IMG/VR virus record: IMGVR_UViG_2568526635_000004
Coordinates: 1 to 15,494 of that record
Reading direction: 5' to 3' (one strand)
Origin: a virus
Lineage: Duplodnaviria > Heunggongvirae > Uroviricota > Caudoviricetes
Length of the DNA: 15,494 nt
This document shows positions 1 to 15,494 of the stretch, piece by piece. Positions within the stretch are counted from its first letter, which is position 1. Each line of letters begins with the position of its first letter. The notes beneath the pieces were generated by a model that ran no database searches, was not told where the DNA came from, and worked only from the letters and a program-made list of their open reading frames with translations. The position numbers and the translations under genes were made by a program.

Positions 1-12
1 AAGAATTGAAAA

Positions 13-517: not shown

Positions 518-763
518 CAAACGCATCAGGAAAGTGGGTCCAGTGATGCCACCGAACGGCTGAATCGGGTAACGTTCTGTTGCCTGGTTGTTGTTTGCGG
601 GTCAGCAATACTGACGCGCAAAGTTAGTTGTATGTGGCTGTGCGTCCACCAGCTACGCCGGAATGGGGTATTCCGTTTCAACGGAACCGGTATGACGAAC
701 ATGATCGCACCTTCTCCCGAAAACGGTGCGACCTCCATAGAGGAAATGCCTATTCAGATCCCC

Positions 764-1118: not shown

Positions 1119-1217
1119 GCAGCCATCACACCGCCACGCAAAAGGGATTTACCACTACCAGCTATATCCCTCAAATCCACCAATGGTGGAAAAGCCCACA
1201 GCAGGCCGCCCAGCCTC

Positions 1218-1253
1218 CCCCAATGGGGGATTGTGGAAGAATCAACGGGTTAG
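1218..1253. repeat. 36-bp direct repeat, copy 2 (CCCCAATGGGGGATTGTGGAAGAATCAACGGGTTAG)
   Basis: See copy 1 at 810-845. Confidence 0.55.
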
Positions 1254-1303
1254 GCTGGTTTCCCCGATGTTCGCCGCTGGCGAATTTCGAAAATATCAAC
1301 CAG

Positions 1304-1597
1304 TTACCGCCGCAACCGCTCCGGCTTCTTCCACTGGTAAGTCTTTTTCTCGCTCTCCCGGTACATCTGCACGCGGCGACGGTAGGCCAGCAACTCGAGA
1401 ACTCTGGTACGTATATCGCGCATATCCACGCCGCTAAGCTCGATACCGTCACGGCGCATCACCTCAGCCACCACACGCGCGTAATTTTCGGCTATCACGC
1501 TGTCCGGCTGCGTGACCTCCTGTTTGCCTGCTGCCTGGCTGATTCCGGTAACGCGGCGGATTATTTTTAGTAGTTCGGTTTCGCTCATTCTCGTCAT
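1304..1597 (-). CDS. Hypothetical small protein (97 aa) translationally coupled to the end of the large terminase gene
   Basis: ATG at 1597 overlaps the terL stop (ATGA overlap, 1594-1597); alternative ATG at 1588 with GGGG ~10 nt upstream; no recognisable motif; basic C-terminus. Confidence 0.55.
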   Translation of the reverse strand: MTRMSETELLKIIRRVTGISQAAGKQEVTQPDSVIAENYARVVAEVMRRDGIELSGVDMRDIRTRVLELLAYRRRVQMYRESEKKTYQWKKPERLRR

Positions 1598-3255
1598 ACC
1601 CCATCAAACGCCGCAAGCCGCTCTTTGTGGCTGTCGCTCATATCGAATGCAAAATCCTCGTGCTCTGCCTGGAATGTGCCAAACGCCATCAGCGCCGCAA
1701 CGCTCGGGTCTATCTTGTTGGATGATTTTTTCTTGTTCGGCTTGATATTGGCGTTTGCGTCACTCTGCATCACAACATTACTCATTGACCAGGCCAGCAC
1801 CGGATCACCACGATGCACAATCACCTTCCGGTTAACAAAAACTTCGAACGATTTCGCCGCCGGACTGAAACGAAGGTATGTTTGCGGGAACGGCTCCACC
1901 TCAAATCCTGCCCCCTGTAGCTGCGTCCTCAGGTGCGTGGCGTTCCATGTATCGAAGCCCACCAGCCTGATATTGAAATTCTCTGCATCCGCCATGATGT
2001 CATCACGGATACGGTCATAATCAATGCAGTCACCCGGTGTTGTGCGTATCCAGCCCGCCTTTACCCACTGGCGATAGATGGCGCGGTTTTTATTGGCGGG
2101 GTTCTGTAGCTGAAATTCCGGCAGATAGTGACGGGAAACCAGCATAATCTTTTTACCGACCGGAAAGGCATAGCACACGCTGGAAATATCGCTGGTTGAT
2201 GATAAGTCCAGCCCCGCGTAGCACTCCTGCCCGTATAAATCCGCCTCCGCGAACGTTCCGGCGCACTCCGCCCATGCACCGTTACCCATCCACGGCGTAG
2301 CCCCCTGACACCAGATATTGAATCGCTTGGTGAGCATTTCCACCCACTGCGACGGAATACCCCGCGCTTTCTGGATGGTTGAGGCCAGTTTTTCACGATC
2401 GACGGAAACATCGATATTGGGATTCGCCTTTATCCACATCGCCGGATCGTCAACCTCGCTTTCATCATCCAGCTCGTAAATCAGCACGAACATGGATTCG
2501 TTCACCTCTTCACCATCCAGTATCTGGCAGCAATAGTCGTAGTGTTGTTTACAGGCTGAAACAACGTTGCTCCCCGATGTGGTGATGGCAAATAATAATC
2601 CCTCCGGACGCGCCCCCATTCCCAGTTCAAGCGCGGAATAAACCCCGTTGTCAGGGTGCAGGTGATATTCATCCACAATGGCAAGACTCGGGTTTGTACC
2701 TTCAATGGTTGCCGCTTTTGCTGCCAGTGGCTTTAACAGGCTGTTGGTTTTCGGGTGTATCACCTTGTGTGCCTGAATATTTACCCGTTTTCGTAACGGT
2801 CGGGATAAAAGGCACATCTGACGCGCATCATCAAACACGATCCGCGCCTGATCACGACTCACGGCGGCGGTGTAAATATCCTGCTGCCCGTTTTCCATAA
2901 CCAGAAACCAGTTAGCCAGGATAGCAGCGACCGTGGATTTGGCATTTTTTCGCGGTACTTCAATGAATGCGCTGGTGTATTTGCGCCGTCCGGTGGCCTT
3001 AACCTTAAAGCCCAGGATGCACGCAAAGGCGAACTGCTGCCACGGCTCCAGCTCAATGGGGCTACCGCGCATTGCGCCTTTTACGTGCGGGCACACCCTG
3101 GAAAAGGCAATAAACCGCTCCACGACCTCCGGATCGAACGTGTAAAGGGGGTTTTCAAGGTCAGAAAAATACCGTTTAACGGCCTGTTTCAGTCGTTTAC
3201 AGGCCGTAATTTTGCCGTTTTTTACGCCTTCTGCGTACTCATGCCAGGCGGTCAA
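1594..3255 (-). CDS. terL: Phage terminase large subunit (ATPase plus nuclease)
   Basis: 553-aa ORF with Walker A-like segment (PRKNAKST) and overall terminase-like layout; TTG start at 3255 preceded by strong AGGAAGAGGA Shine-Dalgarno; overlaps terS end. Confidence 0.93.
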   Translation of the reverse strand: MTAWHEYAEGVKNGKITACKRLKQAVKRYFSDLENPLYTFDPEVVERFIAFSRVCPHVKGAMRGSPIELEPWQQFAFACILGFKVKATGRRKYTSAFIEVPRKNAKSTVAAILANWFLVMENGQQDIYTAAVSRDQARIVFDDARQMCLLSRPLRKRVNIQAHKVIHPKTNSLLKPLAAKAATIEGTNPSLAIVDEYHLHPDNGVYSALELGMGARPEGLLFAITTSGSNVVSACKQHYDYCCQILDGEEVNESMFVLIYELDDESEVDDPAMWIKANPNIDVSVDREKLASTIQKARGIPSQWVEMLTKRFNIWCQGATPWMGNGAWAECAGTFAEADLYGQECYAGLDLSSTSDISSVCYAFPVGKKIMLVSRHYLPEFQLQNPANKNRAIYRQWVKAGWIRTTPGDCIDYDRIRDDIMADAENFNIRLVGFDTWNATHLRTQLQGAGFEVEPFPQTYLRFSPAAKSFEVFVNRKVIVHRGDPVLAWSMSNVVMQSDANANIKPNKKKSSNKIDPSVAALMAFGTFQAEHEDFAFDMSDSHKERLAAFDGV

Positions 3256-3595
3256 GCTCGTCCTCTTCCTCTGTTTCAGGTGGATTTCTGCGGCGGCTTA
3301 CCGGGTCAAAACCCAGCAAAGAAGCCATTTTGATCATTATTCTTTCTGCGTCAGCCTTTGCGCTCAGGGCGGGGTTTCTGCTCTCGCTGCCCTGACTGTT
3401 AACAATGCTGAACCCGCGCGTGGCAAGGTCTTCGACGGCTTTGCGGTATATGGAGTAGTTAACGCAATACAGCTCCAGATTGCTCCAGTCGGCGGGGGTA
3501 AGGTCTTCCCGTCCGGAAAGCTGGCGCGATTTTTCCTTCCACTGCCTGACCGCGATTTCATCCAGGTAAGCGGGGGCTTTTGGTGGTCTTGCCAT
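3239..3595 (-). CDS. terS: Phage terminase small subunit, P27-family-like
   Basis: N-terminus MARPPKAPAYLDE typical of P27-family small terminases; an in-frame ATG at 3736 with better Shine-Dalgarno would add 47 aa, so the true start is uncertain. Confidence 0.78.
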   Translation of the reverse strand: MARPPKAPAYLDEIAVRQWKEKSRQLSGREDLTPADWSNLELYCVNYSIYRKAVEDLATRGFSIVNSQGSESRNPALSAKADAERIMIKMASLLGFDPVSRRRNPPETEEEDELDRLA

Positions 3596-3883
3596 GTTCT
3601 TTTTTCGCCCAATTATTTTCAAAAAAATTCCCGTGCACAAAAATTTGAGGGGGCGGTCGGTGTCCGGCAGGGACGGTTTCGTCCTGAAAACCACCCCCAC
3701 CCCCTCTGACGGCCTCACCAGCGATTGCGAAAACATTCCATGACCTCGCGGTCACGGTCGGTTAATCGCTTCGCTGTGGTGCGTTTTGTGCGCCCTGTCC
3801 TGTTGGCTTTGTGCTCTGTCTCCTGTGTCTTCCATGTGTCACGCTGCCTTATCAGTCCACGTATCAGCCTGGTTTGCTCCTGT

Positions 3884-4324
3884 TCAGTCATCATCGCCAT
3901 ACATCCAGTCGTTACGGTGTGCCGCCCGTTCTTCCTGCTCGCGATACATGCCCGCTTTACGGTTTGCTTTCGTGGCTGGATCTTCCCGTGTCGTCTTACG
4001 GTTGTGGCACGTCTGGCACAATGCCTGGTGATTCCACTCAGGCCAGAAGAGAACATCACCGCCGCCATTGATGGGAATGATGTGATCCACCACAAGAGCT
4101 GGCGTATAAATCCCCTTAGCCAGACAACGCACGCATAACGGGTTTTTGCTCAGGTACAGGGCGCGGTATTTGTCCCACTGTCGGGAATACCCGCGCGCGC
4201 GGCGGTGTCCCCGTCTGGCATCCTCTGCACGCCATGCAGCCCGCCTGTGCTCTTCACACTTGCCGGACTTCACGCGCTTATTACAGCCAGGCTCAGTGCA
4301 TCGCCTTAATGGTTGCCACGGCAT
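3884..4324 (-). CDS. HNH endonuclease (phage packaging-associated)
   Basis: Cys-rich zinc-finger-like N-terminus (CTEPGCNKRVKSGKC), VVDHIIP and NHQALCQTCHNRKT motifs; ATGA overlap with the upstream connector gene. Confidence 0.9.
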   Translation of the reverse strand: MPWQPLRRCTEPGCNKRVKSGKCEEHRRAAWRAEDARRGHRRARGYSRQWDKYRALYLSKNPLCVRCLAKGIYTPALVVDHIIPINGGGDVLFWPEWNHQALCQTCHNRKTTREDPATKANRKAGMYREQEERAAHRNDWMYGDDD

Positions 4325-4626
4325 CAGTACACCCCTACGTCACGATAAACTGACCAGAGCGCAGAAATAGCCATAGGCAGTTCCGAGTGCTCCACTGGTG
4401 AAACCGCTTCCCGGTTCTCGTACAGGAAAGCGATGTACATCAGGCAACCAACACGCATTGCCGGGGTAAATTCCAGCCCGTCTTCAAAACGTTTCCCGAT
4501 ATGCTTCTGGCAGGCTTCCAGCGCCGCATCGGTATACATTTTCAGAAGTTCGCCTTCACCGGATAAATCATCATCAAGTCGAAGATGTGCCCTGACTTCA
4601 TCAGGTGTAATTCTGGCTTCACTCAT
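4324..4626 (-). CDS. gp6-like head-tail connector / adaptor protein
   Basis: Start MSEARITPDEVRAHLRLDDD resembles gp6-like head-tail connector proteins; ATG at 4626 has AGGGAG Shine-Dalgarno; the six-frame ORF extends to 4713 but that part overlaps the portal gene. Confidence 0.78.
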   Translation of the reverse strand: MSEARITPDEVRAHLRLDDDLSGEGELLKMYTDAALEACQKHIGKRFEDGLEFTPAMRVGCLMYIAFLYENREAVSPVEHSELPMAISALWSVYRDVGVY

Positions 4627-5833
4627 CTTTTCTCCCTTTAATTTCCACAGTCTGTTTCCATGCCTGGCTGAACTCATCACCACCTTCACGCGGCGGCATA
4701 CCCTCACGCTCACGGGCTTCGTTCGGATTCATGATCCCGTTCTTAATCCCTTTCTCATACGTGGCATAACGTTCGGTGGGTGTGGCGCGTAATAAATCGG
4801 CTGAATCAAACTCAACCAGATAACGGGTACCAGGTACGGGAGAAGCCACCAGCAAAGCGGCCTTGATTTGCTGTTCGAAGTTCGCCAGCCACGGGCGCAT
4901 TGTCATGGTCAGAAACGCGCGGCTTGCCTCGCTGAAATTGCTGTAGGTGCTGTTGCTGTATTCCTGCAGAAAAATCGGCGACACGTTGAACATCCTGGCG
5001 ATGTCTTCAATGGAGAAGCGACGGGAGGCCAGCCATTCCGCATCCTGGTTACTCATTCCCAGTTGCTTGTAATCCATGCCCCCTTCAAGGATTGGCGTTT
5101 TTCCGGCATTTTTCGCCCCCTTGTAGCGTTCCAGGGCGTCTAATGCCTGTTTACCTTTCACACCGTCCAGCCATTCGCCTGACGTGATAATCCCTGCCGC
5201 CATCATGCCATCTTTCATAATGCTGGCTCCGTGACGCTGTTGAGCAAGGCCAAGCCCCAGCGCCTCACGGCAAATCGTGACGGGGGAACGCCCCAGAAAG
5301 CCATCATCCGAGGCATAGCGGAGATGCAGAACTTCTTCCTGTAAATACGTGCGCACCGTTCCTGTACAGGGTTCGGTGATGGTATAGCGGTATTTGTGTG
5401 CGCCTGTGCGTTCCGGTACAACACACCCCGGCGCATAAGGATGAAGTGATTTTGGCTGCCCGTCCTGCCCCCACTCAATAACCGCATAGGCGTTACCGTT
5501 CAGCAGGCAGTGACGCATCATTGTGCGTTTAAACTGGTAAGGTGTCTGGCACGAATTAGGCTGCTCATTCAGCAGAATATCTACCGGGTGACTGTCCAGC
5601 CATTCCCGCGCCTCCCTGCCCTTGTCATTACGTACCAGATACAGATAACACGGCATCGTGGCCACCGCCTCAGCGATGACAGAAACCGCATTCATCACTG
5701 CAGGCAATGATTCAGCCGTCCCGGCAGAAACATATTCTCCGGATCCGGTATTCGGTACGCCGGACAGCGCCAGAAAATCATCAATGGACAGGTTACGCTG
5801 CTCGCTTTTTTTACGACTAAAAGGCCACCACAT
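4619..5833 (-). CDS. Phage portal protein, HK97 family
   Basis: ~400-aa ORF with portal-like sequence between protease and connector genes; ATG at 5833 with GGGG Shine-Dalgarno chosen over the upstream TTG at 5923, which would overlap the protease gene by ~90 bp. Confidence 0.88.
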   Translation of the reverse strand: MWWPFSRKKSEQRNLSIDDFLALSGVPNTGSGEYVSAGTAESLPAVMNAVSVIAEAVATMPCYLYLVRNDKGREAREWLDSHPVDILLNEQPNSCQTPYQFKRTMMRHCLLNGNAYAVIEWGQDGQPKSLHPYAPGCVVPERTGAHKYRYTITEPCTGTVRTYLQEEVLHLRYASDDGFLGRSPVTICREALGLGLAQQRHGASIMKDGMMAAGIITSGEWLDGVKGKQALDALERYKGAKNAGKTPILEGGMDYKQLGMSNQDAEWLASRRFSIEDIARMFNVSPIFLQEYSNSTYSNFSEASRAFLTMTMRPWLANFEQQIKAALLVASPVPGTRYLVEFDSADLLRATPTERYATYEKGIKNGIMNPNEAREREGMPPREGGDEFSQAWKQTVEIKGRKDE

Positions 5834-5834
5834 A

Positions 5835-6395
5835 TCACAACCCCGCCAGCTCAGACCAGCGATGACGATTATTTCCTGTCGGACGTAATTCAGGGTGCTG
5901 TGCAAACAACGAACGGTGGGCAATCTCCACGCCAGATTCTGGATAAGCAGGCATCGACGTTATTGTGATTTCACGGAGTTCAGCGGCGGTTACGGTACGC
6001 AGATACGGTTTTTGCGCGATACTCCACTCCTCGCATAATGCGCGAAAACCAAAGCTCATTCCTGTAATGTCGCCACGCTCCACCAGCGTAAGCACATCTT
6101 TTCCAAGCTGGGTATCCGGCGGTGTCAGTTCAAAACGTAACCCGGTGTTATCCTCAGTCAGTACCAGAGTGCCGGATTTGGTGCGCCCCAGCAGTTGGGT
6201 ATAGTCATGCTCATACAGGCAGCGCACATCATTACCCGTCGCCAGATAGTCAGCAAAAGCCCCCGGCGTGAACTGTTCGCGGAATTCGTCCCAGATAATT
6301 TCTGAAAGGCTGTTCCAGCGAACGGCATACCCCACCAGCTTTTTATTGCTGGCGGTCAGTTCAGATGTGCGGATTTCAAAATCGGTATTTTTCAT
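5835..6395 (-). CDS. HK97-family prohead (head maturation) protease
   Basis: 186-aa ORF with typical prohead protease segments (GYAVRWN, HDYTQLLGRT); GGAG Shine-Dalgarno 9 nt upstream of the ATG. Confidence 0.9.
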   Translation of the reverse strand: MKNTDFEIRTSELTASNKKLVGYAVRWNSLSEIIWDEFREQFTPGAFADYLATGNDVRCLYEHDYTQLLGRTKSGTLVLTEDNTGLRFELTPPDTQLGKDVLTLVERGDITGMSFGFRALCEEWSIAQKPYLRTVTAAELREITITSMPAYPESGVEIAHRSLFAQHPELRPTGNNRHRWSELAGL

Positions 6396-6411
6396 CGGTA
6401 TACTCCATAAA

Positions 6412-6438
6412 GCTGAAAAAGGAGGCCGAAGCCTCCTC
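6412..6438 (-). terminator. Rho-independent terminator or attenuator between major capsid and protease genes
   Basis: On the minus strand: AGGAGGC-UUCG-GCCUCCU (7-bp GC-rich stem, UUCG tetraloop) followed by a U-tract; sits 12 nt after the capsid stop codon. Confidence 0.65.
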
Positions 6439-6449
6439 CTTACTCATGA

Positions 6450-7619
6450 CTAGCCAGCTTTCATTTCCAGAATTTTGATGGCGTTTGAATCCACCACACC
6501 ACCGCCCAGATATTTATCCGTGTGGACCTTGTAGAATCCGGGTTCAGTAATGTTGTCCGGTCGGGTGCGAATCCCTGTTACATGATCAACGATGAAATAA
6601 CCACGACTGAAATCGCCAACCGCTAGCGGTGCTTTTCCTGCGCCGATGTCCGGCATGGACTCCAGGCAGTAAACAGGACGACCAAGCAACATATCCGGCG
6701 CACCTTCTTTAAGGCTGTCGCGCCAGATATAATCGCCGTTCTCATTTTTCAGCTTCTGTAGTGTCCCTGCCGTGCCCGAGTTCATCACCCAGACGGCATT
6801 TTTGCGGTATTTCGCTTTCAGCTTGTAGAGAATGTCGATCAGTTCGTCCGCTGTAATGGCGGTTCCACTTGCCGCTACCATTTTTTCAATGGTGCCAAAA
6901 GCGCGGGTTTTGTCACTGGTCGCCGCACGGGTGTAAGCCATGAAGCCTTTCGGCTTGCCGTTACCGTCGCCATTAACAAAATCATCCTCTTCGGTGCTGA
7001 CGAACGTGTCGGCAATTTCGGAGGATAACCAGCCCAGAATATCCACCTCTGAAAAATCCAGGATTTCCTGCGTGGTTTTCGGGTAGGCGTAGATCGGATT
7101 CAGCTTGATGGTTACGCGTTCAATTTTCGGGGTGTTGGTTTCACTGCGTGCGCTGCCTTCTGTGCCTCGTCCTACAGTTGCGCCGCCAGTGGAAACCAGT
7201 TTCTGAAACTCATTTGATTTTGCGGTCTTCACGGTCGCGATCACGCGCATAACACTGTCATCCTGTAGCTGGCGCATGACTTCGCGATCGAGCTCAGGAA
7301 TTACGGTATATCCGCCATCCCTGCCGCTGTCAGTGCTGGTGGACAGTGATCGCACATCTCCGGTTACGATGTAGTTACGCAATTCATCAGATGATAATTT
7401 CTGGATGCCCGTTCCTGGCTTGCTGCGTTCTTCATCAGCCACAGACTCGAGGCGGGAAATTTCTGTGTCGAGAGAATCGGCTTTTGCACGCAGTTCATCA
7501 AACTGTTTGCCCTCGTCATCGTTCAGGCTGCGGTTTTCACTGTCGGCTTTTTCCAGCAGGGATCGCATCTGGTTTTTCAGGGCGGTTTTTTGCTGGCGGA
7601 GTTCGATTAATTTCTTCAT
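6450..7619 (-). CDS. HK97-fold major capsid protein with N-terminal coiled-coil scaffold (delta-like) domain
   Basis: 389-aa ORF; charged coiled-coil-like N-terminal ~100 aa followed by MCP-like body and a C-terminus typical of HK97 capsid proteins. Confidence 0.92.
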   Translation of the reverse strand: MKKLIELRQQKTALKNQMRSLLEKADSENRSLNDDEGKQFDELRAKADSLDTEISRLESVADEERSKPGTGIQKLSSDELRNYIVTGDVRSLSTSTDSGRDGGYTVIPELDREVMRQLQDDSVMRVIATVKTAKSNEFQKLVSTGGATVGRGTEGSARSETNTPKIERVTIKLNPIYAYPKTTQEILDFSEVDILGWLSSEIADTFVSTEEDDFVNGDGNGKPKGFMAYTRAATSDKTRAFGTIEKMVAASGTAITADELIDILYKLKAKYRKNAVWVMNSGTAGTLQKLKNENGDYIWRDSLKEGAPDMLLGRPVYCLESMPDIGAGKAPLAVGDFSRGYFIVDHVTGIRTRPDNITEPGFYKVHTDKYLGGGVVDSNAIKILEMKAG

Positions 7620-7689
7620 GAAGGTTTTCTCGTATTGGTTAAGATTCAGGACGTGAAACCAACACGGAGGGAGCGCCGCCCGACACTCT

Positions 7690-7839
7690 CGGCATCTCGC
7701 AGATCAACCCGGCATCGCGCAGGGGGTCAGGCGGCATTGTGGCGGCTCACGTCTGAGTGCCACACGCCAACATATACATAAAAATCAGTATGTAAACATC
7801 AGCCAGAATCACCGAACAATCTGGAACAACCGCGAACAA
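7690..7839. promoter_or_regulatory. Regulatory region upstream of the head operon: direct repeat CGGCATC(T/G)CGCAG x2 (7690-7702, 7710-7722), dyad TGTGGC-N15-GCCACA (7738-7764) and three GAACAA motifs at exact 10-bp phasing (7814, 7824, 7834)
   Basis: Repeats read directly from the sequence; the region lies between the upstream operon terminator and the capsid start codon. Confidence 0.45.
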
Positions 7840-7856
7840 ATAATTTACAAAACCTG

Positions 7857-7884
7857 AAAAAAAGACCCGGGGTAAATCCGGGCC
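7857..7884 (-). terminator. Rho-independent terminator ending the replication/early operon
   Basis: On the minus strand: 7-bp stem GGCCCGG/CCGGGUC with a 7-nt loop followed by 7 U residues; 10 nt downstream of the 82-aa ORF stop. Confidence 0.75.
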
Positions 7885-7893
7885 TTTATCGCT

Positions 7894-8142
7894 TTACTGT
7901 TTCACGGGATCGCGCATTCTGCGCCTTATTTTCCACAAATATTCGATCATCGCTTCCACCTGCTCACGGTTGGTTGCGAAAATTTCCCCGGTCAGTGAGC
8001 TGCGCAGAAAATCATGATGATCCACAACAAATAACGCATCGGAAGAAAGCAGACGGCGATATTTTTTTGCTGTCGTGGTTTCCAGATCATCAATACCATG
8101 AAACTTTTTATGTTGCTGAACTTCTTCAAATGTCACTGGCAT
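7894..8142 (-). CDS. Hypothetical small protein (82 aa), basic C-terminus
   Basis: ATG at 8142 with AGGGGGA Shine-Dalgarno; followed by a strong terminator; no recognisable motif. Confidence 0.6.
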   Translation of the reverse strand: MPVTFEEVQQHKKFHGIDDLETTTAKKYRRLLSSDALFVVDHHDFLRSSLTGEIFATNREQVEAMIEYLWKIRRRMRDPVKQ

Positions 8143-8159
8143 GTATCCCCCTGTTATCG

Positions 8160-8582
8160 CTAAAAGGGTATGTTATCCCCGTATGGATCATCATTCCCCG
8201 CCTGTTGCTTAGCCCTATTTAGAGCGTCAGTAGCCTGGCCCTGCTGGCCTTTTTTGCCACCAGGTCGCGCCGTTCTGGCACTGATTACGCTGTCTGCGAT
8301 AACCTGCCAGCCCTGCCGCGTTTCCCCGTTCTGGCCTGTCCACTGGCTTACCTGCATGTTACCCGCCACGCTCACCAGCTCGCCTTTGTGGTGTTTTGCC
8401 AGTGCGTCGGCCTGTCTGCCAAACGCCAGAACGGATAACCACATCGTCGCCTGTCCGTCATCTGCCTGATTGCACGGCAGGGGGACAGCCATGCTTGCCA
8501 TAGCCATTTGTGTGCCCTTGCTGGTGGTCTTTAACTGCGGGTCAGCCACCAGCCGCCCGTAAGCTGCTATCTGTGCTGTCAT
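8160..8582 (-). CDS. ssb: Single-stranded DNA-binding protein-like (SSB-like) with acidic C-terminal tail
   Basis: 140-aa ORF with OB-fold-like layout, Gly/Gln-rich linker and a C-terminal DDPYGDNIPF resembling the canonical SSB DDDIPF tail; GGAGAA Shine-Dalgarno. Confidence 0.7.
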   Translation of the reverse strand: MTAQIAAYGRLVADPQLKTTSKGTQMAMASMAVPLPCNQADDGQATMWLSVLAFGRQADALAKHHKGELVSVAGNMQVSQWTGQNGETRQGWQVIADSVISARTARPGGKKGQQGQATDALNRAKQQAGNDDPYGDNIPF

Positions 8583-8646
8583 GCTGTCTGTTCTCCGGTT
8601 TTAACGTTGATAGTTACGCTTGTTTACACCCTTACGGTGAAATTCT

Positions 8647-8769
8647 GCGGGTTATAATCGCACTTTTGCGGGTTATAACTGCCGTTTTGCGGGTTACGTG
8701 CGGGTTATTGATTTCCTTTTTATTCATACAGTTAATGCACTTACACACAGGATAACCCGCATAACCCGC
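8647..8769. repeat. Origin-like iteron array: 4 forward GCGGGTTA copies (8647, 8668, 8689, 8700; 21/21/11-bp spacing), AT-rich spacer, 2 tandem inverted copies (8753-8760, 8762-8769)
   Basis: Exact repeats counted in the sequence; located immediately downstream of the primase/helicase gene, with the AT-rich segment 8709-8750 between the arms. Confidence 0.7.
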
Positions 8770-8793
8770 AACTTTTCACCTCACACAGGGGAG

Positions 8794-10917
8794 TTAATCT
8801 TCTGCCTCAGGCTGGAACATCATCACGTAAAAAACATGCTGCTTACCCCCAATTTTGCCGAGCGCCTTTTTCTTGTAACGGCGATCGTTACCCGCTTCCA
8901 GCATTCCGGCAGCACTCAACGCGCGGGCAAAGTGGGATGGGTTAAATCCCTGTGCGATCTCCCCCTCAAACACATGAGGAAACGTGTAAAAACGGAACTC
9001 ATCATCTTCATTTCTGATACTCCCCTTTCTGTATCCGGCAAGGTCTTTAATCGGTAAATCACGCTCGTCGGTGTTGGGCCACGGAAGGTATCTGCTGAAT
9101 CCGAACGACGCTAAAAAAGCCTCTGCCTGTTCAACCATCTGTTTAAACTCCCTGTTACCCGTGCCGAACTCCTTCACCCAGGCATTAAAATTATGCTGAA
9201 TGGCATCGCGGCATTCCTGCTCATTCCAGCCAGTAACATGACCGGAAAGCACAAGCGCGGCCTCCAGTATGGCGAAACGCTCACCCACGCGGTGGACCTG
9301 CTCGCCGTAGCTCTCCGGTATCAGGTTGCGCCACCGTTCACGGCATGCCCTTACCATGTCCTTTGCCTCCTGCTGGTGGTCTGCCAGCCATTTAACCCAC
9401 TCACGCCCCGCCGCCCCGTGATTTTCTGTCCAGGCATCTTTTAACGCGTCTGCGTGCGCCTTTCCGGTGCTGTATTCGTGAAATTGTGTGGCTTTTTCCA
9501 TCGGCACGTTAAGCAGGCGGACAAGCTGCCCCGCCTTGACTTTTATCCCCTCCGTTTTGAGGAATGTTTCAACGTCCATTTCTCCGGTACTGATTGCCAC
9601 CGTTCGCCAGTGTTTTATCTCCCTGTTGCCGCCGTCCTTCGCCCCCTGTAATTTCCCGGAACCGTTAAACAGCGTATAAGCAGACGTTGACACCTCCCGC
9701 GCGTTTCCGGCCTGGCCTATTTCATCCAGGGGTAACAGCCCGTCGTTGTGTGCCTCTGCCTCGTTGGCGATACCTAACGCTGTGCCGTACCAGGTCAGCC
9801 GCTGCGCGTCCGGCTCTCCCCATAAACTTGATGCGATGTTCTGCGTTGTGGTCTTACCTGCCGATGACTGTTCGAAAAGATGTACCCCGAAGCCGTCAGC
9901 ACCCACCAGCCCGATTAATGGTGCGGATAGCGATACCGCCACACCCAGCATCATGGACGGATTACCACCAGCCAGTCGCGCCACACTGTCGCGCCAGCCC
10001 TCCGCCGTTCCTGCCACGGAATAACCATTAACGGCAGCCGTTTTTCCGGTAAACAGGACTGGCTTTTCGCAATCACCAATGACCGAACCGTCCGGCATGA
10101 TGTACGCGCCAAAATGCCAGCCCGTTGTTGTGCTTAACTGCCATTCCTCATGGTTTCCGCTTAACTGCATCCAGTCAGCCAGGATAGCCCTGTATTTACC
10201 GTTGGTTGTCACGTTCAGTCCGTGGTCTTTCAGCAGCCGCCAGCCGTCACGGTCGCCAATGCCACCGCACGGAACCGCCATCGTGATGACTTCATGGTTT
10301 GCTGGCTTTTTCCAGCGCATCACGCGGTAATGCTCTTTGCCGATTGTCCCCGTTCCCAGTAGCTCAAGCGGGGAGCATAACCACGTTTCAGGCCGGATAA
10401 TTTCGCCTGACTGCTTATCCACTTTTGGCGTTACCCAGAAAACACCATCGGCGCGGCTTTCAACGCGGGGCTTTAATTCATCATCACCCGGGCTTTCTGT
10501 GATTTTTTTCTTTAAGGGCAACACCAGACTTTCCCCGCGCTCGTATTCGTCTTTGAGGCGAGGCAACTGGTCGGATAAATCCGCCGGGCTGGTGTCAGTT
10601 ATCCCCGCGTATTCGTATACGGTCTTCACGCCAGCCACAGCCAGCAACGTGACGATCTGTGTGAGGCTACGTTCAGTGATGTGCCCTGCGCGGTAAATAC
10701 GCACACACTGACGGCTATCATCAATAATTTGATAACCGGTAATATCTTTCAGGTGTTCATCTGACAGAACGACAGGCGGCACATTGTCGGCGGCAATATG
10801 CTTACCTGCCCATTCCTGCCACTCTTTCGCATGGCTCCACGCATCACTACCCGCAAAGATGATAACCTCCGTCATTTTGTCGGCTGGCTGGTGCTTTAAG
10901 TTTGGTGCGCGCTTCAT
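8794..10917 (-). CDS. Replication initiation protein, primase/helicase type (P4 alpha-like, Walker A GKT)
   Basis: 707-aa ORF with a central P-loop (FEQSSAGKTTT) and large flanking domains; ATG at 10917 with GGGGAAAGG Shine-Dalgarno, ATGA overlap with the upstream ORF; the exact family was not verified. Confidence 0.8.
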   Translation of the reverse strand: MKRAPNLKHQPADKMTEVIIFAGSDAWSHAKEWQEWAGKHIAADNVPPVVLSDEHLKDITGYQIIDDSRQCVRIYRAGHITERSLTQIVTLLAVAGVKTVYEYAGITDTSPADLSDQLPRLKDEYERGESLVLPLKKKITESPGDDELKPRVESRADGVFWVTPKVDKQSGEIIRPETWLCSPLELLGTGTIGKEHYRVMRWKKPANHEVITMAVPCGGIGDRDGWRLLKDHGLNVTTNGKYRAILADWMQLSGNHEEWQLSTTTGWHFGAYIMPDGSVIGDCEKPVLFTGKTAAVNGYSVAGTAEGWRDSVARLAGGNPSMMLGVAVSLSAPLIGLVGADGFGVHLFEQSSAGKTTTQNIASSLWGEPDAQRLTWYGTALGIANEAEAHNDGLLPLDEIGQAGNAREVSTSAYTLFNGSGKLQGAKDGGNREIKHWRTVAISTGEMDVETFLKTEGIKVKAGQLVRLLNVPMEKATQFHEYSTGKAHADALKDAWTENHGAAGREWVKWLADHQQEAKDMVRACRERWRNLIPESYGEQVHRVGERFAILEAALVLSGHVTGWNEQECRDAIQHNFNAWVKEFGTGNREFKQMVEQAEAFLASFGFSRYLPWPNTDERDLPIKDLAGYRKGSIRNEDDEFRFYTFPHVFEGEIAQGFNPSHFARALSAAGMLEAGNDRRYKKKALGKIGGKQHVFYVMMFQPEAED

Positions 10918-11228
10918 TTTGCCTTTCCCCGTTCACGAATAATTTCACGTACTGCCTTAATGCGTTCCATTCCTGTAACGCGCATGATTCTGTCGATGTC
11001 GCTTAATTCTGCTGGTGGTGCTTTGCTTACCAGGGTGAACTCCCTGTCAAAGCGCATATGTGACGACACGCAGGGATGCGCATAACCTTCGCGGATATAG
11101 GTCACACGAAAATCATCGACGGTTTTAATCGTTATCGTGCTGCCGTATTTATCCCGGAAAATATCACCGGGGCGGATTTCAGGCCGAGCGTGACCGCTGG
11201 CAGTAAAGCCAGAATTTTTCTTTTTCAT
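10914..11228 (-). CDS. Hypothetical protein (104 aa) coupled to the primase gene
   Basis: ORF with ATG start; its stop overlaps the primase start codon; no recognisable motif. Confidence 0.6.
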   Translation of the reverse strand: MKKKNSGFTASGHARPEIRPGDIFRDKYGSTITIKTVDDFRVTYIREGYAHPCVSSHMRFDREFTLVSKAPPAELSDIDRIMRVTGMERIKAVREIIRERGKAK

Positions 11229-11234
11229 GTTTTT

Positions 11235-11453
11235 TTACTCCAGAGGCAGCTTTTTAGCGGCGAGCTCAATATCAGATGTCAGAGAAACCTGTGTATTTGC
11301 CAGGTCTAACAACAAAGAAATAAGAATTTCTTCTCTGCTATCGGATTTATCGGTGCTAAGGCTGTTCATCCACATATTGACGACTTCCCTGATTTTTTTC
11401 GCAGAGTGCAGGGCTTCAAATGCCAGGTCTTCAATATCATGTTTATTTCGCAT
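11235..11453 (-). CDS. Hypothetical small protein (~72 aa), relatively AT-rich
   Basis: ATG at 11453 preceded by a GGGGG Shine-Dalgarno; the ORF track offers a longer version to 11483; overlaps the stop of the upstream small ORF. Confidence 0.5.
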   Translation of the reverse strand: MRNKHDIEDLAFEALHSAKKIREVVNMWMNSLSTDKSDSREEILISLLLDLANTQVSLTSDIELAAKKLPLE

Positions 11454-11688
11454 AATCGCCCCCGCCATTTTCACAATCAGCAATCAGGATGGCTTTAGCC
11501 TCATTCAGCGCCATATCAGCGGTAAGCTGTGCGTAAGCCAGCGAATGCGGGATTATCGCCCCTGTATATTCCGTCTCTCTGGTAATGTGTTTTTCTGCGG
11601 TTGCTACCGTGCATGAAATATCAATCAGCGCGTGCATCAGCGTTTTGATGGCTTCGGCGGCTGCGTCCGGACGGGTGTTATTGCACAT
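11443..11688 (-). CDS. Hypothetical small protein (~81 aa)
   Basis: ATG at 11688 with GGGGG Shine-Dalgarno, overlapping the stop of the Ash/Icd-like ORF; the six-frame ORF extends further upstream but that part overlaps the neighbouring gene. Confidence 0.5.
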   Translation of the reverse strand: MCNNTRPDAAAEAIKTLMHALIDISCTVATAEKHITRETEYTGAIIPHSLAYAQLTADMALNEAKAILIADCENGGGDYAK

Positions 11689-12217
11689 GGCGCACCCCCT
11701 GACGAATACGGGCGGCGAATACAGCGACACAACCTGACGGGCAATGGTTACGCGCTTCGCGTTCCGTCCAGGCGGTGACGTGGATGATTTGGGACTCTGA
11801 CGCGCCAAAGATGATAAAGCGCCAGATAAAGGCAGTTTGGGAATGTACAAGGGTAGGGATAGTAGCCATGTTGGCAGCCTCTTCGTTAGGTTTAATAAAC
11901 CCACCGCAGGAAACGCCAATTTCGCTGGCGGTGGACTGTACAGGGTTGGCGTAACCGGTTAACGAAGAACCCGGCGCGGATTGCTCCGCCCCCATACAGC
12001 CCACCATTGATAAGGTGTGACTATCCGGCACAAAAAAACACGCAGGGCGCGTGTTGTGCGCTTCGTTAAATACCAGGACGCCAATCCCGGCACCAGATTT
12101 TGCTGGTGCGGGTAAATCATAGCCCTGGCTGGCAGTGGCGATCAACAGGTTTTTTACATCGGGTTTATTCAGGTTGTGCGAGTCCCGCCCTTGCGGGTGT
12201 GTGGTATGATTTAGCAT
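11678..12217 (-). CDS. Ash-family-like protein with C-terminal Icd-like (cell-division-inhibitor-like) segment
   Basis: Segments AKSGAGIGV, FFVPDSH, SMVGCMGAEQ, ANPVQSTASEIGVSCGG recall Ash-family proteins of P4-like elements; the C-terminal FIWRF...TEREAR...FAARI recalls Icd-like peptides (an internal ATG at MATIPTL could yield a ~62-aa product); start at 12217 has a GAGGT Shine-Dalgarno. Assignment is from memory of these families, not from a search. Confidence 0.5.
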   Translation of the reverse strand: MLNHTTHPQGRDSHNLNKPDVKNLLIATASQGYDLPAPAKSGAGIGVLVFNEAHNTRPACFFVPDSHTLSMVGCMGAEQSAPGSSLTGYANPVQSTASEIGVSCGGFIKPNEEAANMATIPTLVHSQTAFIWRFIIFGASESQIIHVTAWTEREARNHCPSGCVAVFAARIRQGVRHVQ

Positions 12218-12314
12218 AGCTACCTCGATACGCTTTCTATCGTTGGTGGTTAGAAGCCCTGCGAGTGGTAACGACACTTGCGGGGCTTTGCATTTATGCA
12301 CCTTGATAACCTCA

Positions 12315-12350
12315 AGGTGTGGCCCACTATATGCTTTAGGTGTGGTCCAC
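12315..12350. promoter_or_regulatory. Two operator-like 13-bp direct repeats AGGTGTGG(C/T)CCAC, each containing the dyad GTGG-N-CCAC, in the divergent control region
   Basis: Repeats at 12315-12327 and 12337-12350; immediately upstream of a TATACT -10-like hexamer (12381-12386) and the plus-strand small gene. Confidence 0.5.
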
Positions 12351-12416
12351 GTCAAGGGTTTTATTTGTGCTTTTTCTGTGTATACTGTCCCCCACCAATC
12401 CAACAGAGGAATAGAA

Positions 12417-12596
12417 ATGGCAACGGGTACAACAAACGCAAAATCACAAGCTCTAAAGGCTCGTGTACCACACGAAATAGTAAACGCCATGGAATCAGTG
12501 AAAGAATCAGGCGAAAGCACATCACAATTCATCATTGCGTCAATGCAAGGCGAGATCAAACGCCGCCAGCGCAGGAAGGCCAAAGAGCAGGAATAG
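12417..12596 (+). CDS. Small ribbon-helix-helix-like (Arc/MetJ-type) DNA-binding protein, candidate repressor
   Basis: 59-aa ORF (MATGTTNAKSQALKARVPHEIVNAMESV...) with GAGGAA Shine-Dalgarno 7 nt upstream; N-terminal basic beta-strand-like segment followed by helices; the only plus-strand gene, divergent from the replication operon. Confidence 0.6.
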   Translation: MATGTTNAKSQALKARVPHEIVNAMESVKESGESTSQFIIASMQGEIKRRQRRKAKEQE

Positions 12597-12729
12597 CCCA
12601 CCAGCAAGCCAGCACATTCACCATAATGACCCTCGGTTAAACCTAGAGTCATTGGTGCAAACCTGACAGATTGCCCACCAGCCAGCAAATCGCTATGATG
12701 TTCGGGCTTATGTTTAGTGTTTTCCCATT

Positions 12730-12758
12730 GGCGACCGCCCCCGGTCGCCTTTGTTTTA
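12730..12758 (+). terminator. Rho-independent terminator on the plus strand
   Basis: Perfect 8-bp stem GGCGACCG/CGGTCGCC with CCCC loop followed by TTTGTTTTA; ~135 nt downstream of the plus-strand small gene. Confidence 0.7.
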
Positions 12759-12776
12759 TGTGCCATATACTCCCCT

Positions 12777-13001
12777 TTACGCTGCCTTGCCTGAATTAAT
12801 GCGATCCCGGCTTTTAACCCATTCCATAACCTCGGACAGCAGCCAACCTACAGAACGACCGCCCAGATTAAGACGTGACGGAAAGCATCCTTTTTTCTCC
12901 AGTTCGTAGCGTGTAGTGCGGCACACTCCTGTTAACTTACGGCATTCATCCTCACGGATTACGCGATCTGATAGTGATTGCGATTGTTTGAGTTGGTTCA
13001 T
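12777..13001 (-). CDS. alpA: AlpA-family transcriptional regulator (excisionase-like helix-turn-helix)
   Basis: SDRVIREDECRKLTGVCRTTRYELEKKGCFPSRLNLGGRSVGWLLSEVMEWV matches the AlpA/phage regulatory protein pattern; ATG at 13001 has a GAGGG Shine-Dalgarno (the ORF track extends to 13037). Confidence 0.85.
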   Translation of the reverse strand: MNQLKQSQSLSDRVIREDECRKLTGVCRTTRYELEKKGCFPSRLNLGGRSVGWLLSEVMEWVKSRDRINSGKAA

Positions 13002-13079
13002 ATAAAAACGCCCTCGTTCGTTATCGTTCGAGAGCATTTTTTATGAGAGAAAATAGGTAAGCAATAAACAAAAAAATAA

Positions 13080-14075
13080 TTATTTTTCTTTATTTATTTT
13101 GTATTCGCTAAGTAATTTATAAATTTTAGGTCTAATTTTTTCTAAAAATGGTATAACTGTTTGTTCAAGCCCGAAACCATCACGCTCACCATTGGGATAA
13201 ATCATGGATGCAAGAACACGCTTTGGGACTCTTCTTTTTGTTCCAAATGTATAAAACTTAGCCAACATCAATAAATCCATAAGCGGTATAATTTTATATT
13301 TTATTATTCTCTCTCTCAAATATCCCCATGCCCGTTTGGGTTCAGGCTCTTCTAAATTGAGTTCTTTTCTCCATATCGGTAATAATTTTTTTAAATCAGA
13401 TAATATCTCATCATCTGTTTTTGTAATATCAAGTGACAAGTGCATTGCATAAGAAAAGCCTTCACTATTAGACTTCATCAATTCAGGCGCAACTGCACTT
13501 AAACTCTCATTTGCCAAAGTAAATAGAAGTTCATCATCATACTCAGATAAATAATCGACATCTTCAGAGCTCAACAATAATGTGCGCTCAGTTCCTGCAC
13601 CCGATGATGGTTTTTTCCAAACATAATTTTCAAGCATTATTCTTCGCAAAGGGACTACGGTTCGAGTTGATGATAACATATGAGGAAAAAAACCTTTATA
13701 CAGTTCTTTTCTTATGTTTTTTTCATAAAACGAATAGTCCGCACCAATATCATCGCCAATAACTGAAGATGCAAATATCTTTCTAAACCGACCAGAAACA
13801 AAAGCAATCTCAGTTTCTATTGATGGAATTTTTGAATTAATAATATCTTTTGTCTCATTCTCATCTTCTGGCAAACTCCTTACATCGATAAAATTCTCAT
13901 ACAAATAAGCCATAAAGTGTTCTTCATCTTCTACAACAAACCCCTTTATAAATCTGTTGTAATCCTCTCTACGCATTAACTGAGTAATCAATTCAAAATC
14001 ACTCATATCGGTAAAAACTTCATACTTCCCCAAATTAAAGCCCAATGCTTCTGCAAAATTTTTAAAAGAAATCAT
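13080..14075 (-). CDS. Hypothetical 331-aa cargo protein, strongly AT-rich, unknown function
   Basis: Uninterrupted ORF whose ATG overlaps the integrase stop (ATGA at 14072-14075); nucleotide composition visibly far more AT-rich than the rest of the element; no recognisable catalytic motif by eye. Confidence 0.8.
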   Translation of the reverse strand: MISFKNFAEALGFNLGKYEVFTDMSDFELITQLMRREDYNRFIKGFVVEDEEHFMAYLYENFIDVRSLPEDENETKDIINSKIPSIETEIAFVSGRFRKIFASSVIGDDIGADYSFYEKNIRKELYKGFFPHMLSSTRTVVPLRRIMLENYVWKKPSSGAGTERTLLLSSEDVDYLSEYDDELLFTLANESLSAVAPELMKSNSEGFSYAMHLSLDITKTDDEILSDLKKLLPIWRKELNLEEPEPKRAWGYLRERIIKYKIIPLMDLLMLAKFYTFGTKRRVPKRVLASMIYPNGERDGFGLEQTVIPFLEKIRPKIYKLLSEYKINKEK

Positions 14076-15292
14076 TTGCTAACCTTCAAAATAACAACAT
14101 TTTCATTATTACCAACTAACACATCGAGACGTTCAACCCATAGATTCAGAGCGTCCCGCTTCGCCTGTAAATAGCGTGAATGGTTATAGGTTTTTTGCTG
14201 ACCAGGCATCTGATGCGCTGTGATGTGCTCCACGATATGCGGATCGACACCTAAATCGTTCAGCATCGTTGTAAACGTGTGGCGAAAGTCATGCAGCGTC
14301 CAGTGTTCCTGGTTAAGCCGCTTATGCGCATTTCGCCCATATTGCGCTACCGTGGTATCTTTTTTCAGTTCTCCGAGTAACAACCCTGTATGCCGGTTCT
14401 GCTCCACCAGCTTCTGAATGAACGGCAAAATGCCATCGGGTATTGGCCTGAATATCGTTACCTTCGTTTTGCTGTGCTCTTTTGGCACTGTCCACAACAT
14501 TTCTTTCAGATCCCATTCTTTGATCTCTGAAAGTCTGACCTCTGCCGTTCTGCACCCGAACACAATCAGCAAGCGCATTAACGCGCTGTAGTAAGGCGCG
14601 AACACATCACCATCAATAGCGCGTAAAATTTCCTTTAATTCGCTGTTGCTGTGCACCCTCTCGCGAATTTCTGCTCTCTTACCCACATCGCTGACGATCA
14701 AATCGTCCAGGGCATTACTGAACGCGTAGCGCCTCCTGCGGCAGAACTTTAGCGCCTGTTTGCAGGTTTGCATGACGTGCCCTGCTGCTACTGGTGCTTT
14801 TTTTCGTACACGGTCAAAACATGCGATCCACTGCCTTGTATCGCATTTATCAAGAGGAATTGCCCCTATATGGCAAATGATGTGCTTATCCATACGTTGC
14901 ACCAGCTTTATGTAGTCTTTGCGGTTATCCTTCGCGTATTCCTCCAGCCAGTAGTTAATCGCCTCCTTTACCGTAACGGGTTTTAGTGATTCCTGTACTG
15001 TGGCGCACAACTCATAACGGGGGTTTTTACCCTCAGCCAGCCATGCCCGGCACTGTGTGCGTTTTTCCCTTGCGGCTTTCAGCGACAATTCCGGATAAGC
15101 CCCCAACTTTAGCCGCTCAGCGGCAACCTCACGGCCTCCCGTTCGATACCGGAAATACCAGGTTAATTTGCCGCCCTTTGAGTGTTTAATCTCCAGCCCG
15201 CCCCCGTCGGAGTAAAAACGCTCTTTTTCTGCCTGGACAGCCGCTAATTTTTTTAACGTCGAATCGCTCAGTTTGTTTAGTGCTTTTCCCAC
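14072..15292 (-). CDS. int: Tyrosine recombinase / integrase, P4 type (N-terminal arm-binding domain plus catalytic domain)
   Basis: 406-aa ORF; N-terminus LSDSTLKKL...GGLEIKHSKGGKLTWYFRYR typical of P4-like integrase arm-binding domains; catalytic HDFRHTF and C-terminal Tyr region; GTG start at 15292 with AAGAGGA Shine-Dalgarno; adjacent to the right direct repeat. Confidence 0.93.
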   Translation of the reverse strand: MGKALNKLSDSTLKKLAAVQAEKERFYSDGGGLEIKHSKGGKLTWYFRYRTGGREVAAERLKLGAYPELSLKAAREKRTQCRAWLAEGKNPRYELCATVQESLKPVTVKEAINYWLEEYAKDNRKDYIKLVQRMDKHIICHIGAIPLDKCDTRQWIACFDRVRKKAPVAAGHVMQTCKQALKFCRRRRYAFSNALDDLIVSDVGKRAEIRERVHSNSELKEILRAIDGDVFAPYYSALMRLLIVFGCRTAEVRLSEIKEWDLKEMLWTVPKEHSKTKVTIFRPIPDGILPFIQKLVEQNRHTGLLLGELKKDTTVAQYGRNAHKRLNQEHWTLHDFRHTFTTMLNDLGVDPHIVEHITAHQMPGQQKTYNHSRYLQAKRDALNLWVERLDVLVGNNENVVILKVSK

Positions 15293-15319
15293 TATCAGAT
15301 CCTCTTTTCAGTCCTCCAG

Positions 15320-15397
15320 CCTCAAAAAACTGACCACACAACTGACCACACATTTTGTTGAAGCTCTACGAACAACGACGAACAACAACAAACAAGA
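15320..15397. repeat. Right copy of the ~76-bp imperfect direct repeat (putative attR), immediately upstream of int
   Basis: See left copy at 13-88. Confidence 0.7.
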
Positions 15398-15494
15398 AAA
15401 CACAATAATACAATATATATCAAATACATACACAAACAACCACGAACAAACCCGAACTGCAAAAAACACTAAATGAGAAAATACGGGTATTTCT

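Follow-up and report, generated by a model that had tools for sequence, protein, structure and literature searches.

A candidate ribbon-helix-helix repressor and its operators in the control region of a PICI-type phage satellite

Overview

The window examined here, a 15,494-nt stretch of DNA from a virus of the Caudoviricetes (IMG/VR record IMGVR_UViG_2568526635_000004, positions 1 to 15,494), carries the gene set of a capsid-forming phage-inducible chromosomal island (cf-PICI), a satellite of the PICI type, as judged from Pfam matches and the cf-PICI paper. Its region 12218-12758 is most likely the control switch of this satellite, with a layout like that of P4. At the center of the region is a gene for a 59-aa protein of the YlcI/YnfO family that is proposed, with a probability of about 0.7, to be the island's repressor, of the ribbon-helix-helix (RHH) type; its operators would lie on the promoter of the replication genes and on its own promoter, and its gene runs antisense inside a long eta-like open reading frame (ORF). 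A preliminary description of the same DNA had proposed an immunity or repressor switch. The RHH repressor and its operators stand as the core of that proposal, and the placement of the operators on the promoters, the lack of a third site, a suggested small RNA and the part given to the long ORF do not. The comparisons below draw on about 80 distinct loci that come from gene look-ups and from scanning a single genome of each species. In the loci with inspected flanks, the gene order is conserved as int, accessory gene, alpA (minus strand), ylcI (plus strand), small ORFs, DUF4222 and primase.

The YlcI-like protein

12417-12596, plus strand: ylcI-like gene, 59 aa (ATG at 12417, TAG at 12594-12596, Shine-Dalgarno (SD) sequence GAGGAA at 12406-12411)

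The 59-aa protein scores 67.4 bits on the NCBIfam model YlcI_YnfO_N (NF041551, cut-off 30), with residues 9-50 matched, and relatives are also labeled YlcI/YnfO in RefSeq. It further matches PHROG 949, a family of unknown function that includes YlcI of Escherichia coli K-12. The K-12 protein scores 72.8 bits on DUF3950 (PF13132), and the window protein has no Pfam match, DUF3950 included, at E <= 0.1. Homologs number 55 and are chiefly from Enterobacterales; the family appears small, as a library profile search finds only 90 clusters (50% identity) among 1.84 billion representatives. An SD sequence precedes the gene in 31 of 34 cluster representatives.

The AlphaFold model built with the homolog alignment has a predicted local distance difference test (pLDDT) score of 90.6 and includes an extended segment (residues 1-18) followed by two helices (residues 19-28 and 35-58). 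This strand-helix-helix order, with a G-x-S/T/N turn ahead of helix 2, is that of the RHH fold, to which the modeled protein is assigned. Invariant residues of the homolog alignment include R16, P18, E33, F38 and E46-R50. A profile search of PDB sequences with the protein returns nothing below E = 0.7. The family score and the model bear out the RHH-like gene of the preliminary description. Its orientation, divergent from the replication operon, and its standing as the sole plus-strand gene also hold; all other family-matched genes of the window are on the minus strand.

Variants of the locus are noted among the relatives. E. coli Nissle 1917 encodes a 101-aa YlcI/YnfO protein annotated in RefSeq (locus L094, 7081-7386), and for several library representatives, 100-114 aa long, the profile matches in two stretches, so that the repressor may also come in extended or duplicated forms. 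In locus L001 (E. coli NZ_CP076279.1), a 250-bp insertion directly after ylcI (4698-4950) holds a 64-aa plus-strand ORF (phrog_21027, unknown function), and L009 likewise has a small ORF after ylcI. Such ORFs may be partner genes in some cassettes.

Candidate operator sites and the divergent promoters

12317-12327: candidate operator site 1, GTGTGGCCCAC, over the leftward -10 (its last 2 bases) and the predicted start of leftward transcription
12340-12350: candidate operator site 2, GTGTGGTCCAC, abutting or overlapping the leftward -35 and covering the first 10 nt of the spacer
12385-12395: candidate operator site 3, CTGTCCCCCAC, degenerate, over the final bases of the rightward -10 and the predicted start of ylcI transcription
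12355..12326, minus strand: leftward promoter (P4 PLE-like), with -35 TTGACG (12355..12350), 18-nt spacer and -10 TATAGT (12331..12326)
12381-12386, plus strand: -10 TATACT of the putative rightward (ylcI) promoter, with a weak -35 and a T-rich spacer

The two 13-bp repeats reported earlier are confirmed: AGGTGTGGCCCAC (12315-12327) and AGGTGTGGTCCAC (12338-12350) are exact matches to AGGTGTGGNCCAC, 23 bp apart, and GTGGNCCAC is found nowhere else in the 15.5-kb window. By arithmetic, an exact match of 12 given bases is expected by chance about 0.002 times in the 31 kb that the two strands comprise; in a shuffle test of the 13-mer that allows 2 mismatches, 3 occurrences are found compared to 1.06 expected, which is not significant alone. 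The unit conserved among loci is an 11-bp GTG-N5-CAC, the GTGG-N-CCAC form being peculiar to the core of the window element. Relative to the ylcI ATG, site 2 is located at -77, site 3 at -32 and site 1 at -99 to -112 (79 loci). The site 1 position is filled in about 80 loci with a core that agrees with site 2 of the same locus, and across loci, site 3 as a rule shares 9-10 of 11 positions with site 2 (only 7 of 11 in the window). The upstream consensus reads AAGTG....CCAC.TCAA...(T-rich)...GTATACTG....CCACC.

A promoter scan places a sigma-70-type promoter (10 of 12 matches) at 12355..12326; therefore, the repeats cover the divergent promoter, with one on its -10/+1 and the other on its -35/spacer, rather than the promoter of ylcI, where they had first been placed. 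The complement of the leftward -35, NTCAA, is position-fixed in 79 of 81 loci. This promoter heads the icd/kil-like gene, DUF4222, the primase gene and the genes downstream. On the other side, TATACT occupies -36..-31 in 24 of 34 cluster representatives, the remainder having near variants. Site 3 is on the -10/+1 of the gene itself, which suggests autoregulation. Together, the positions of the sites on -35, -10 and +1 elements argue for repression of the leftward operon and for autoregulation.

A protein bound at these same sites could instead act as an activator or roadblock modulator, stimulating its own promoter by shutting the competing one or stalling read-through from alpA. The back-to-back promoters recall Pant/Pmnt of phage P22, and three bound dimers would stand in the path of transcripts from alpA. 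This alternative is given a low probability, since site 3, over the -10/+1 of ylcI, is at a repressing position; it is also largely compatible with the repressor model, leftward repression being common to both. An antitoxin-like role, in which the RHH protein neutralizes the toxic Icd/kil-like or another small protein by contact and binds DNA only for conditional autoregulation, in the manner of type II toxin-antitoxin systems, appears very improbable. Two of the three sites are on the divergent promoter and not its own, the protein is composed of an RHH domain and basic tail with no toxin-binding extension, and the window has neither a co-transcribed toxin gene nor any plus-strand partner ORF for ylcI.

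Operator cores and cassette exchange

The N5 core of the sites is identical, in either orientation, within a locus and different between loci (e.g., TGGCC, GACTC, TCAGC, TCGGA, TATTT, AATCG, AACAC and TTGAA). Site 1 and site 3 differ from site 2 of their own locus by a mean distance of 0.63 and 1.68, respectively, compared to 3.7 and 4.3 from site 2 of a locus of another type. The cores track the protein: 29 beta-strand 5-mers, located between the invariant K9-S10 and R16, map almost one-to-one onto operator cores, and positions 12-14, flanked by the invariant S10 and R16, have the top entropy in the strand (2.6-3.1 bits). The partial Mantel correlation of operator with beta-strand, given the rest of the protein, is 0.26, a value reached in 0 of 2000 permutations. 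Prediction from the beta-strand alone gives GTGTCAGCCAC for L090 and GTGTGGCCCAC for L091, and each is found there in three copies.

Exchange between elements provides a further line of evidence. The window and L001 share flanks at 11614-12243 (the entire icd/ASH/isrK/C4 ORF) and 12591-12950 (the 3′ untranslated region and most of alpA) with 83-100% identity per 30-nt block, mostly 93-100%; between these flanks (12244-12590), identity is mostly 43-73%, and both the operators and YlcI differ, the L001-type operators being GTGTCGGACAC, of another specificity class than those of the window. L001 and L002 have identical AlpA proteins and different operators. Between the window and L090, the breakpoint is inside ylcI at about codon 37. 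The operators and ylcI, as read from these alignments, move between elements as one cassette, and the family may comprise 20 or more interchangeable repressor/operator specificities that would be readable from residues 12-14. The paired dyads of the preliminary description hold up as operators in that they co-vary with the beta-strand and travel in the swaps; the third site had been missed.

Another factor could bind the sites (e.g., AlpA, the Icd/kil-like protein, a host protein or the peptide encoded antisense by the eta-like ORF), leaving the RHH protein another role, such as one related to packaging or a partnership. A segment of the eta-like ORF does lie in the swapped cassette, and ylcI of K-12 adjoins the terminase gene nohD, with no sites upstream. 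The cassette swaps, however, exclude AlpA, the Icd-like protein and host factors as specificity determinants: elements with different operators share AlpA and the complete icd/ASH ORF in identical or almost identical form, and a host factor cannot account for cores that are specific to the element. The antisense peptide is without a family match and under weaker, atypical constraint (amino-acid identity of 0.54 vs. 0.60 for the plus frame), whereas the variation of the RHH protein is concentrated in the beta-strand, the known DNA-reading part of RHH proteins. Binding by another factor is thus judged quite unlikely.

The eta-like ORF

11678-12766, minus strand: eta-like ORF, 362 aa (SD AGGGGAG at 12776..12770, ATG at 12766, 10 nt past the alpA stop)
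12777-13037, minus strand: alpA (P4 vis-like; Pfam Phage_AlpA, 57.2 bits), convergent with ylcI

The eta-like ORF starts at a junction with alpA that reads TAA-AGGGGAG-TAT-ATG, runs antisense across ylcI, the operators and both promoters, and ends as the nested icd/kil-like ORF. Of 81 distinct sequences, 78 have no stop in this frame across ylcI, and in most loci the frame continues open for at least 300 nt through the control region into the first leftward ORF. Over the 190 nt upstream of the ylcI ATG, this frame is free of stops in 62 of 81 loci (37 of 48 clusters), and the other five frames are open in 0-12 loci. In about 50 of 60 loci, the nearest in-frame start falls between -17 and +13 nt relative to the stop codon of the gene upstream. 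The length of the ORF differs widely among loci, and its N-terminal 184 aa have no PHROG match.

In P4, a constitutive promoter is located inside eta, and Kil is the nested short form; full-length Eta is translated solely when transcription comes from the late promoter upstream, in coupling with the alpA homolog, and its translation prevents termination, such that the act of translation is what matters (PMC10111431). The window has the same P4-type arrangement, with a long coupled ORF, a promoter inside it (12355..12326) and a nested short ORF.

Within the overlap with ylcI, differences by codon position number 15929/11288/30645, with position 2 the most conserved, as expected of a primary coding frame. 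Amino-acid identity is 0.60 in the plus frame and 0.54 in the antisense frame, where position 1 is atypically more conserved than position 2. A third-position test between the strands is uninformative, as both frames share wobble positions. By these counts, the primary constraint within the overlap is on the plus frame. The open and presumably translated minus frame is under selection, as judged from its conservation, and co-exists with ylcI rather than replacing it. The preliminary description had set up the long minus-strand ORF as a competitor of the gene; with its frame kept open in 62 of 81 loci, it is instead a partner.

That the minus-strand ORF alone encodes a real protein, with the plus-strand ORF and the repeats as by-products, is extremely improbable. 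The open frame, the good SD and ATG right after alpA, and the weakening of codon-position tests by the shared wobble positions are in its favor. The plus-strand protein, however, belongs to a curated family with a confident RHH model, an SD sequence, a -10 and a terminator, and position 2 of its frame is the most conserved; the N-terminal half of the minus-strand product is without PHROG homologs and highly variable in length, and the P4 precedent ascribes importance to translating eta (PMC10111431).

The icd/kil-like ORF and the immunity RNAs

11678-12217, minus strand: nested kil/icd-like ORF (ATG at 12217, SD GAGGT; NCBIfam phage_ICD_like, 56.8 bits; Pfam Phage_ASH)
12033-12109, minus strand: isrK (Rfam, 80 bits; gathering score 50)
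11924-12011, minus strand: C4 antisense RNA (Rfam, 75.3 bits; gathering score 45)

The kil/icd-like ORF is Icd-like at its C-terminus, and its middle overlaps both immunity RNAs, which lie just left of the control region and had been missed in the preliminary description. The isrK and C4 models detect relatives of the P4 seqA and CI immunity RNA (PMC10111431); thus, the window has the P4-type pairing of a CI-type RNA and a seqA-type target inside an ORF. The Pfam Phage_ASH match coincides with the isrK/C4 matches (11924-12109, minus strand), and the ‘Ash protein family’ may for the most part represent RNA genes that are translated in the eta-like frame.

These RNAs are not common among the relatives. 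They are absent from 39 of 40 representative related loci, such that only the window and L001 carry them (2 of 41), and P4-type RNA immunity appears to be an optional addition to the RHH module. In most other loci, the first leftward ORF encodes a short Icd-like protein directly behind the leader. Locus L090 (E. coli CP028739.1) is near-identical to the window but without about 320 bp (window 11849-12168) that hold isrK and C4. From this distribution, the RHH cassette is taken to be the conserved core and isrK/C4 an accessory layer of the window element.

A candidate antisense RNA in the leftward leader

12202-12210, plus strand: candidate promoter TG-G-TATGAT, with a predicted start at about 12217
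12227-12241, plus strand: small hairpin, which covaries
12253-12288, plus strand: conserved terminator-like hairpin in the leftward leader, with a T-rich tail to 12298
12299-12319, minus strand: 8-bp perfect inverted repeat, CACCTTGA/TCAAGGTG, where the leftward transcript is predicted to begin (many loci have similar ones)

The leader of the leftward operon has two hairpins in which, for a structure specified by hand, 14 of 17 pairs have compensatory changes. Paired cells amount to 88.9%; slid controls give 31-45%, and none of 500 shuffles attains the values observed. RNAalifold gave a poor consensus on the plain MAFFT alignment of the leader, and the hand-specified structure was thus the one counted. 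When read on the minus strand, the hairpins have 60 A-C vs. 3 G-U cells; the structure, therefore, fits an RNA of the plus strand. Positions 5-9 past the stem are mostly T, and the TAnnnT hexamer of the candidate promoter is position-fixed in 32 of 32 representatives, though the icd/kil codons it overlaps vary. The region includes the invariant TGGTTAGA, and the small hairpin presents an anti-SD loop in most elements. Rfam has no match to 12202-12298. These features suggest a cis-antisense RNA of about 80 nt (approximately 12217-12298, plus strand) that covers the translation start of the icd/kil-like ORF.

A broader, nested switch of three layers may be envisioned: (i) RHH master repressors of Gram-negative PICIs, 59-62 aa in length, with 20 or more specificities, (ii) a repressor gene antisense in the eta-like ORF, and (iii) the ~80-nt cis-antisense RNA, which would block icd/kil-like translation and replace the P4 CI RNA in elements that are without isrK/C4. 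This three-layer scheme is possible but tentative and, taken as a whole, somewhat doubtful.

Proposed switch and points that weigh against it

In the proposed RHH-based switch, dimers of the protein would insert a beta-ribbon into the major groove, with the invariant S10 and R16 reading the outer GTG/CAC and the variable residues 12 and 14 reading the core. With sites 1 and 2 occupied, the leftward promoter would be closed to RNA polymerase, such that the genes for replication and packaging and the toxic icd/kil-like gene stay silent, and the imperfect site 3 would provide negative autoregulation. AlpA is a helper-induced activator in Gram-negative PICIs (PMC6092414). Induction would begin with this known step, the helper phage turning on alpA, after which transcription from the alpA promoter would extend across the repressor gene that converges on it. 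The alpA-coupled translation of the eta-like ORF would shield the transcript from Rho, as in P4; read-through would bypass the repressed promoter, and collision and antisense pairing would stop repressor synthesis and flip the switch. As the repressor gene lies antisense inside the eta-like ORF, transcription of alpA on helper induction would at once remove the repressor and circumvent its operators. In the window element, isrK/C4 would form a second, P4-type layer based on termination.

Several points weigh against the repressor proposal. Repression is deduced from the positions of the sites. Sites 3 and 2 of the window disagree at 4 of 11 positions; thus, autoregulation may be weak. The rightward promoter is not called by the promoter scan, as its -35 is weak. 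A correlation with the operator is also seen for the remainder of the protein (partial Mantel r of 0.22), and the operators and gene are less than 100 bp apart; therefore, the covariation is in part linkage, and more weight is given to the prediction of operators, the cassette swaps and the site positions. The swapped cassette also encodes a segment of the eta-like ORF, which is formally a possible specificity determinant. Full repression of the leftward promoter would mean that the C4 RNA transcribed from it is not made, and the two layers must be balanced. Finally, the region upstream of K-12 ylcI has no GTG-N5-CAC repeats; hence, the operator architecture appears specific to the satellite subfamily, and the function may not extend to the whole family.

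The terminator and 3′ untranslated region of ylcI

12730-12758, plus strand: intrinsic terminator after ylcI (stem 12730-12737/12742-12749, 8 bp with 7 G-C, 4-nt loop, then TTTGTTTTAT)
12597-12729, plus strand: 3′ untranslated region (UTR), 133 nt (its minus strand forms codons ~13-57 of the long ORF)

The 8-bp-stem terminator reported about 135 nt after the ylcI stop codon is present and begins 133 nt past it. A terminator-like hairpin is found on the plus strand behind ylcI in 47 of 81 loci, and a related hairpin (GGCGRCC...GGYCGCC-TTTGTTTTA) occurs in L003, L038, L040 and L090.

The small RNA that had been suggested for the 3′ UTR is unsupported. Rfam has no match to the stretch even at E <= 1, and its fold z-score of -3.45 is mostly due to the terminator. 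The stretch forms part of the flank on the side of alpA and of the 5′ end of the long minus-strand ORF. It is 100% identical in L001, where the 250-bp insertion parts it from ylcI, and the related elements H2-H5 diverge beyond 12616. A 17-nt direct repeat, ATWGCCCACCAGCMAGC, is also noted here at 12593-12609 and 12670-12686, spaced by 77 bp. The repeat is unrelated to YlcI specificity, as this flank is shared with L001, whose operator type differs; sites for AlpA or Int would be a guess at its role.

Other genes of the element

14072-15292, minus strand: integrase (family match)
13080-14075, minus strand: DUF6387 gene, AT-rich (GC ~0.32), between int and alpA
8794-10917, minus strand: DUF927 primase (family match)
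Further minus-strand genes: Icd/ASH-like ORF, DUF4222, single-stranded DNA-binding protein, major capsid, prohead protease, portal, head-tail connector, HNH, and small and large terminase subunits (TerS and TerL)

The cf-PICI genes of the window include int, alpA and primase, together with the capsid, protease, portal, connector, HNH, TerS and TerL genes of the element itself; no tail or lysis families were identified by Pfam among the window ORFs tested. The DUF6387 gene occupies the slot between int and alpA where related islands carry accessory cargo, and PADLOC has no match to it or to the small ORFs. An Rfam int-alpA RNA (RF02996) is found in the related islands L007, L012, L020, L028, L034, L040, L042, L043, L050, L068, L078 and L081; the window, in which the DUF6387 gene fills this interval, has no match at the gathering score.

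Comparison with known systems and significance

The closest functional parallels to the proposed repressor are from phages and satellites that differ from it in sequence or layout. The immI region of P22 includes the RHH repressors Mnt and Arc, the divergent promoters Pant/Pmnt and the sar antisense RNA, and Mnt stimulates its own promoter by shutting the competing divergent promoter. No sequence similarity of Mnt/Arc to the YlcI-like protein was detected by the PDB profile search. P22 has one operator of 17-21 bp, whereas the satellite has three separate 11-bp sites; in addition, the satellite gene is antisense inside a long ORF, and the operon under its control would be for replication and packaging, not an antirepressor. 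The plasmid RHH repressors CopG (pMV158) and Omega (pSM19035) share only 10-16% sequence identity with the YlcI-like protein and differ in site and genetic context. In immI of P1/P7 (C4 RNA-icd-ant), a C4-type RNA is similarly followed by an icd-like ORF in one transcript; the P1 operon promoter is under the C1 repressor, whereas the candidate in the satellite is an RHH protein.

The immunity region of P4 (PLL-vis-eta/kil-PLE-seqA-CI) is alike in having an alpA/vis homolog followed by a coupled long ORF, with an internal promoter, a nested short toxic ORF and isrK/C4-type RNAs inside. P4 immunity is RNA-only, whereas the satellite adds a protein repressor gene and operators antisense in the eta-like ORF. 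A tblastn search of 50,697 phage records with the YlcI-like protein returned no match; thus, P4 itself appears to be without a ylcI homolog. [quoted passage not shown] By contrast to the 59-aa RHH protein, which has no obvious sensor domain, Stl is a large helix-turn-helix protein that is inactivated by helper-phage proteins; induction of the satellite is instead known to run through AlpA expression.

The stretch of gene plus operators (window 12300-12600) is matched in 902 of 5426 complete E. coli genomes. The module is found in an O157:H7 PICI beside cspD and in a Nissle 1917 PICI, and it is also distributed across the Enterobacterales; YlcI of K-12 (prophage DLP12, divergent from nohD) is a distant paralog. 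No functional study of YlcI, YnfO or DUF3950 was found in the searchable literature, and no description of an RHH repressor of satellites was found there either, which is not proof of absence. The founding paper on Gram-negative PICIs in 2018 identifies AlpA as the activator and calls the global repressor “unclear” (PMC6092414). The cf-PICI paper tested alpA only, and the eta/CI parallels are covered elsewhere with no coverage of the ylcI-like gene (PMC10111431).

PICIs spread virulence, resistance and anti-phage genes. If the proposal is correct, a conserved RHH module would fill the missing-repressor gap of the Gram-negative PICIs, and the uncharacterized YlcI/YnfO family would gain a function. 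The cassettes would likewise provide a natural set of at least 20 small repressor/operator pairs, orthogonal to one another and with a recognition code that can be read, and the locus would be a clean case of a gene nested antisense in a frame that is selected for its translation and not for its product.

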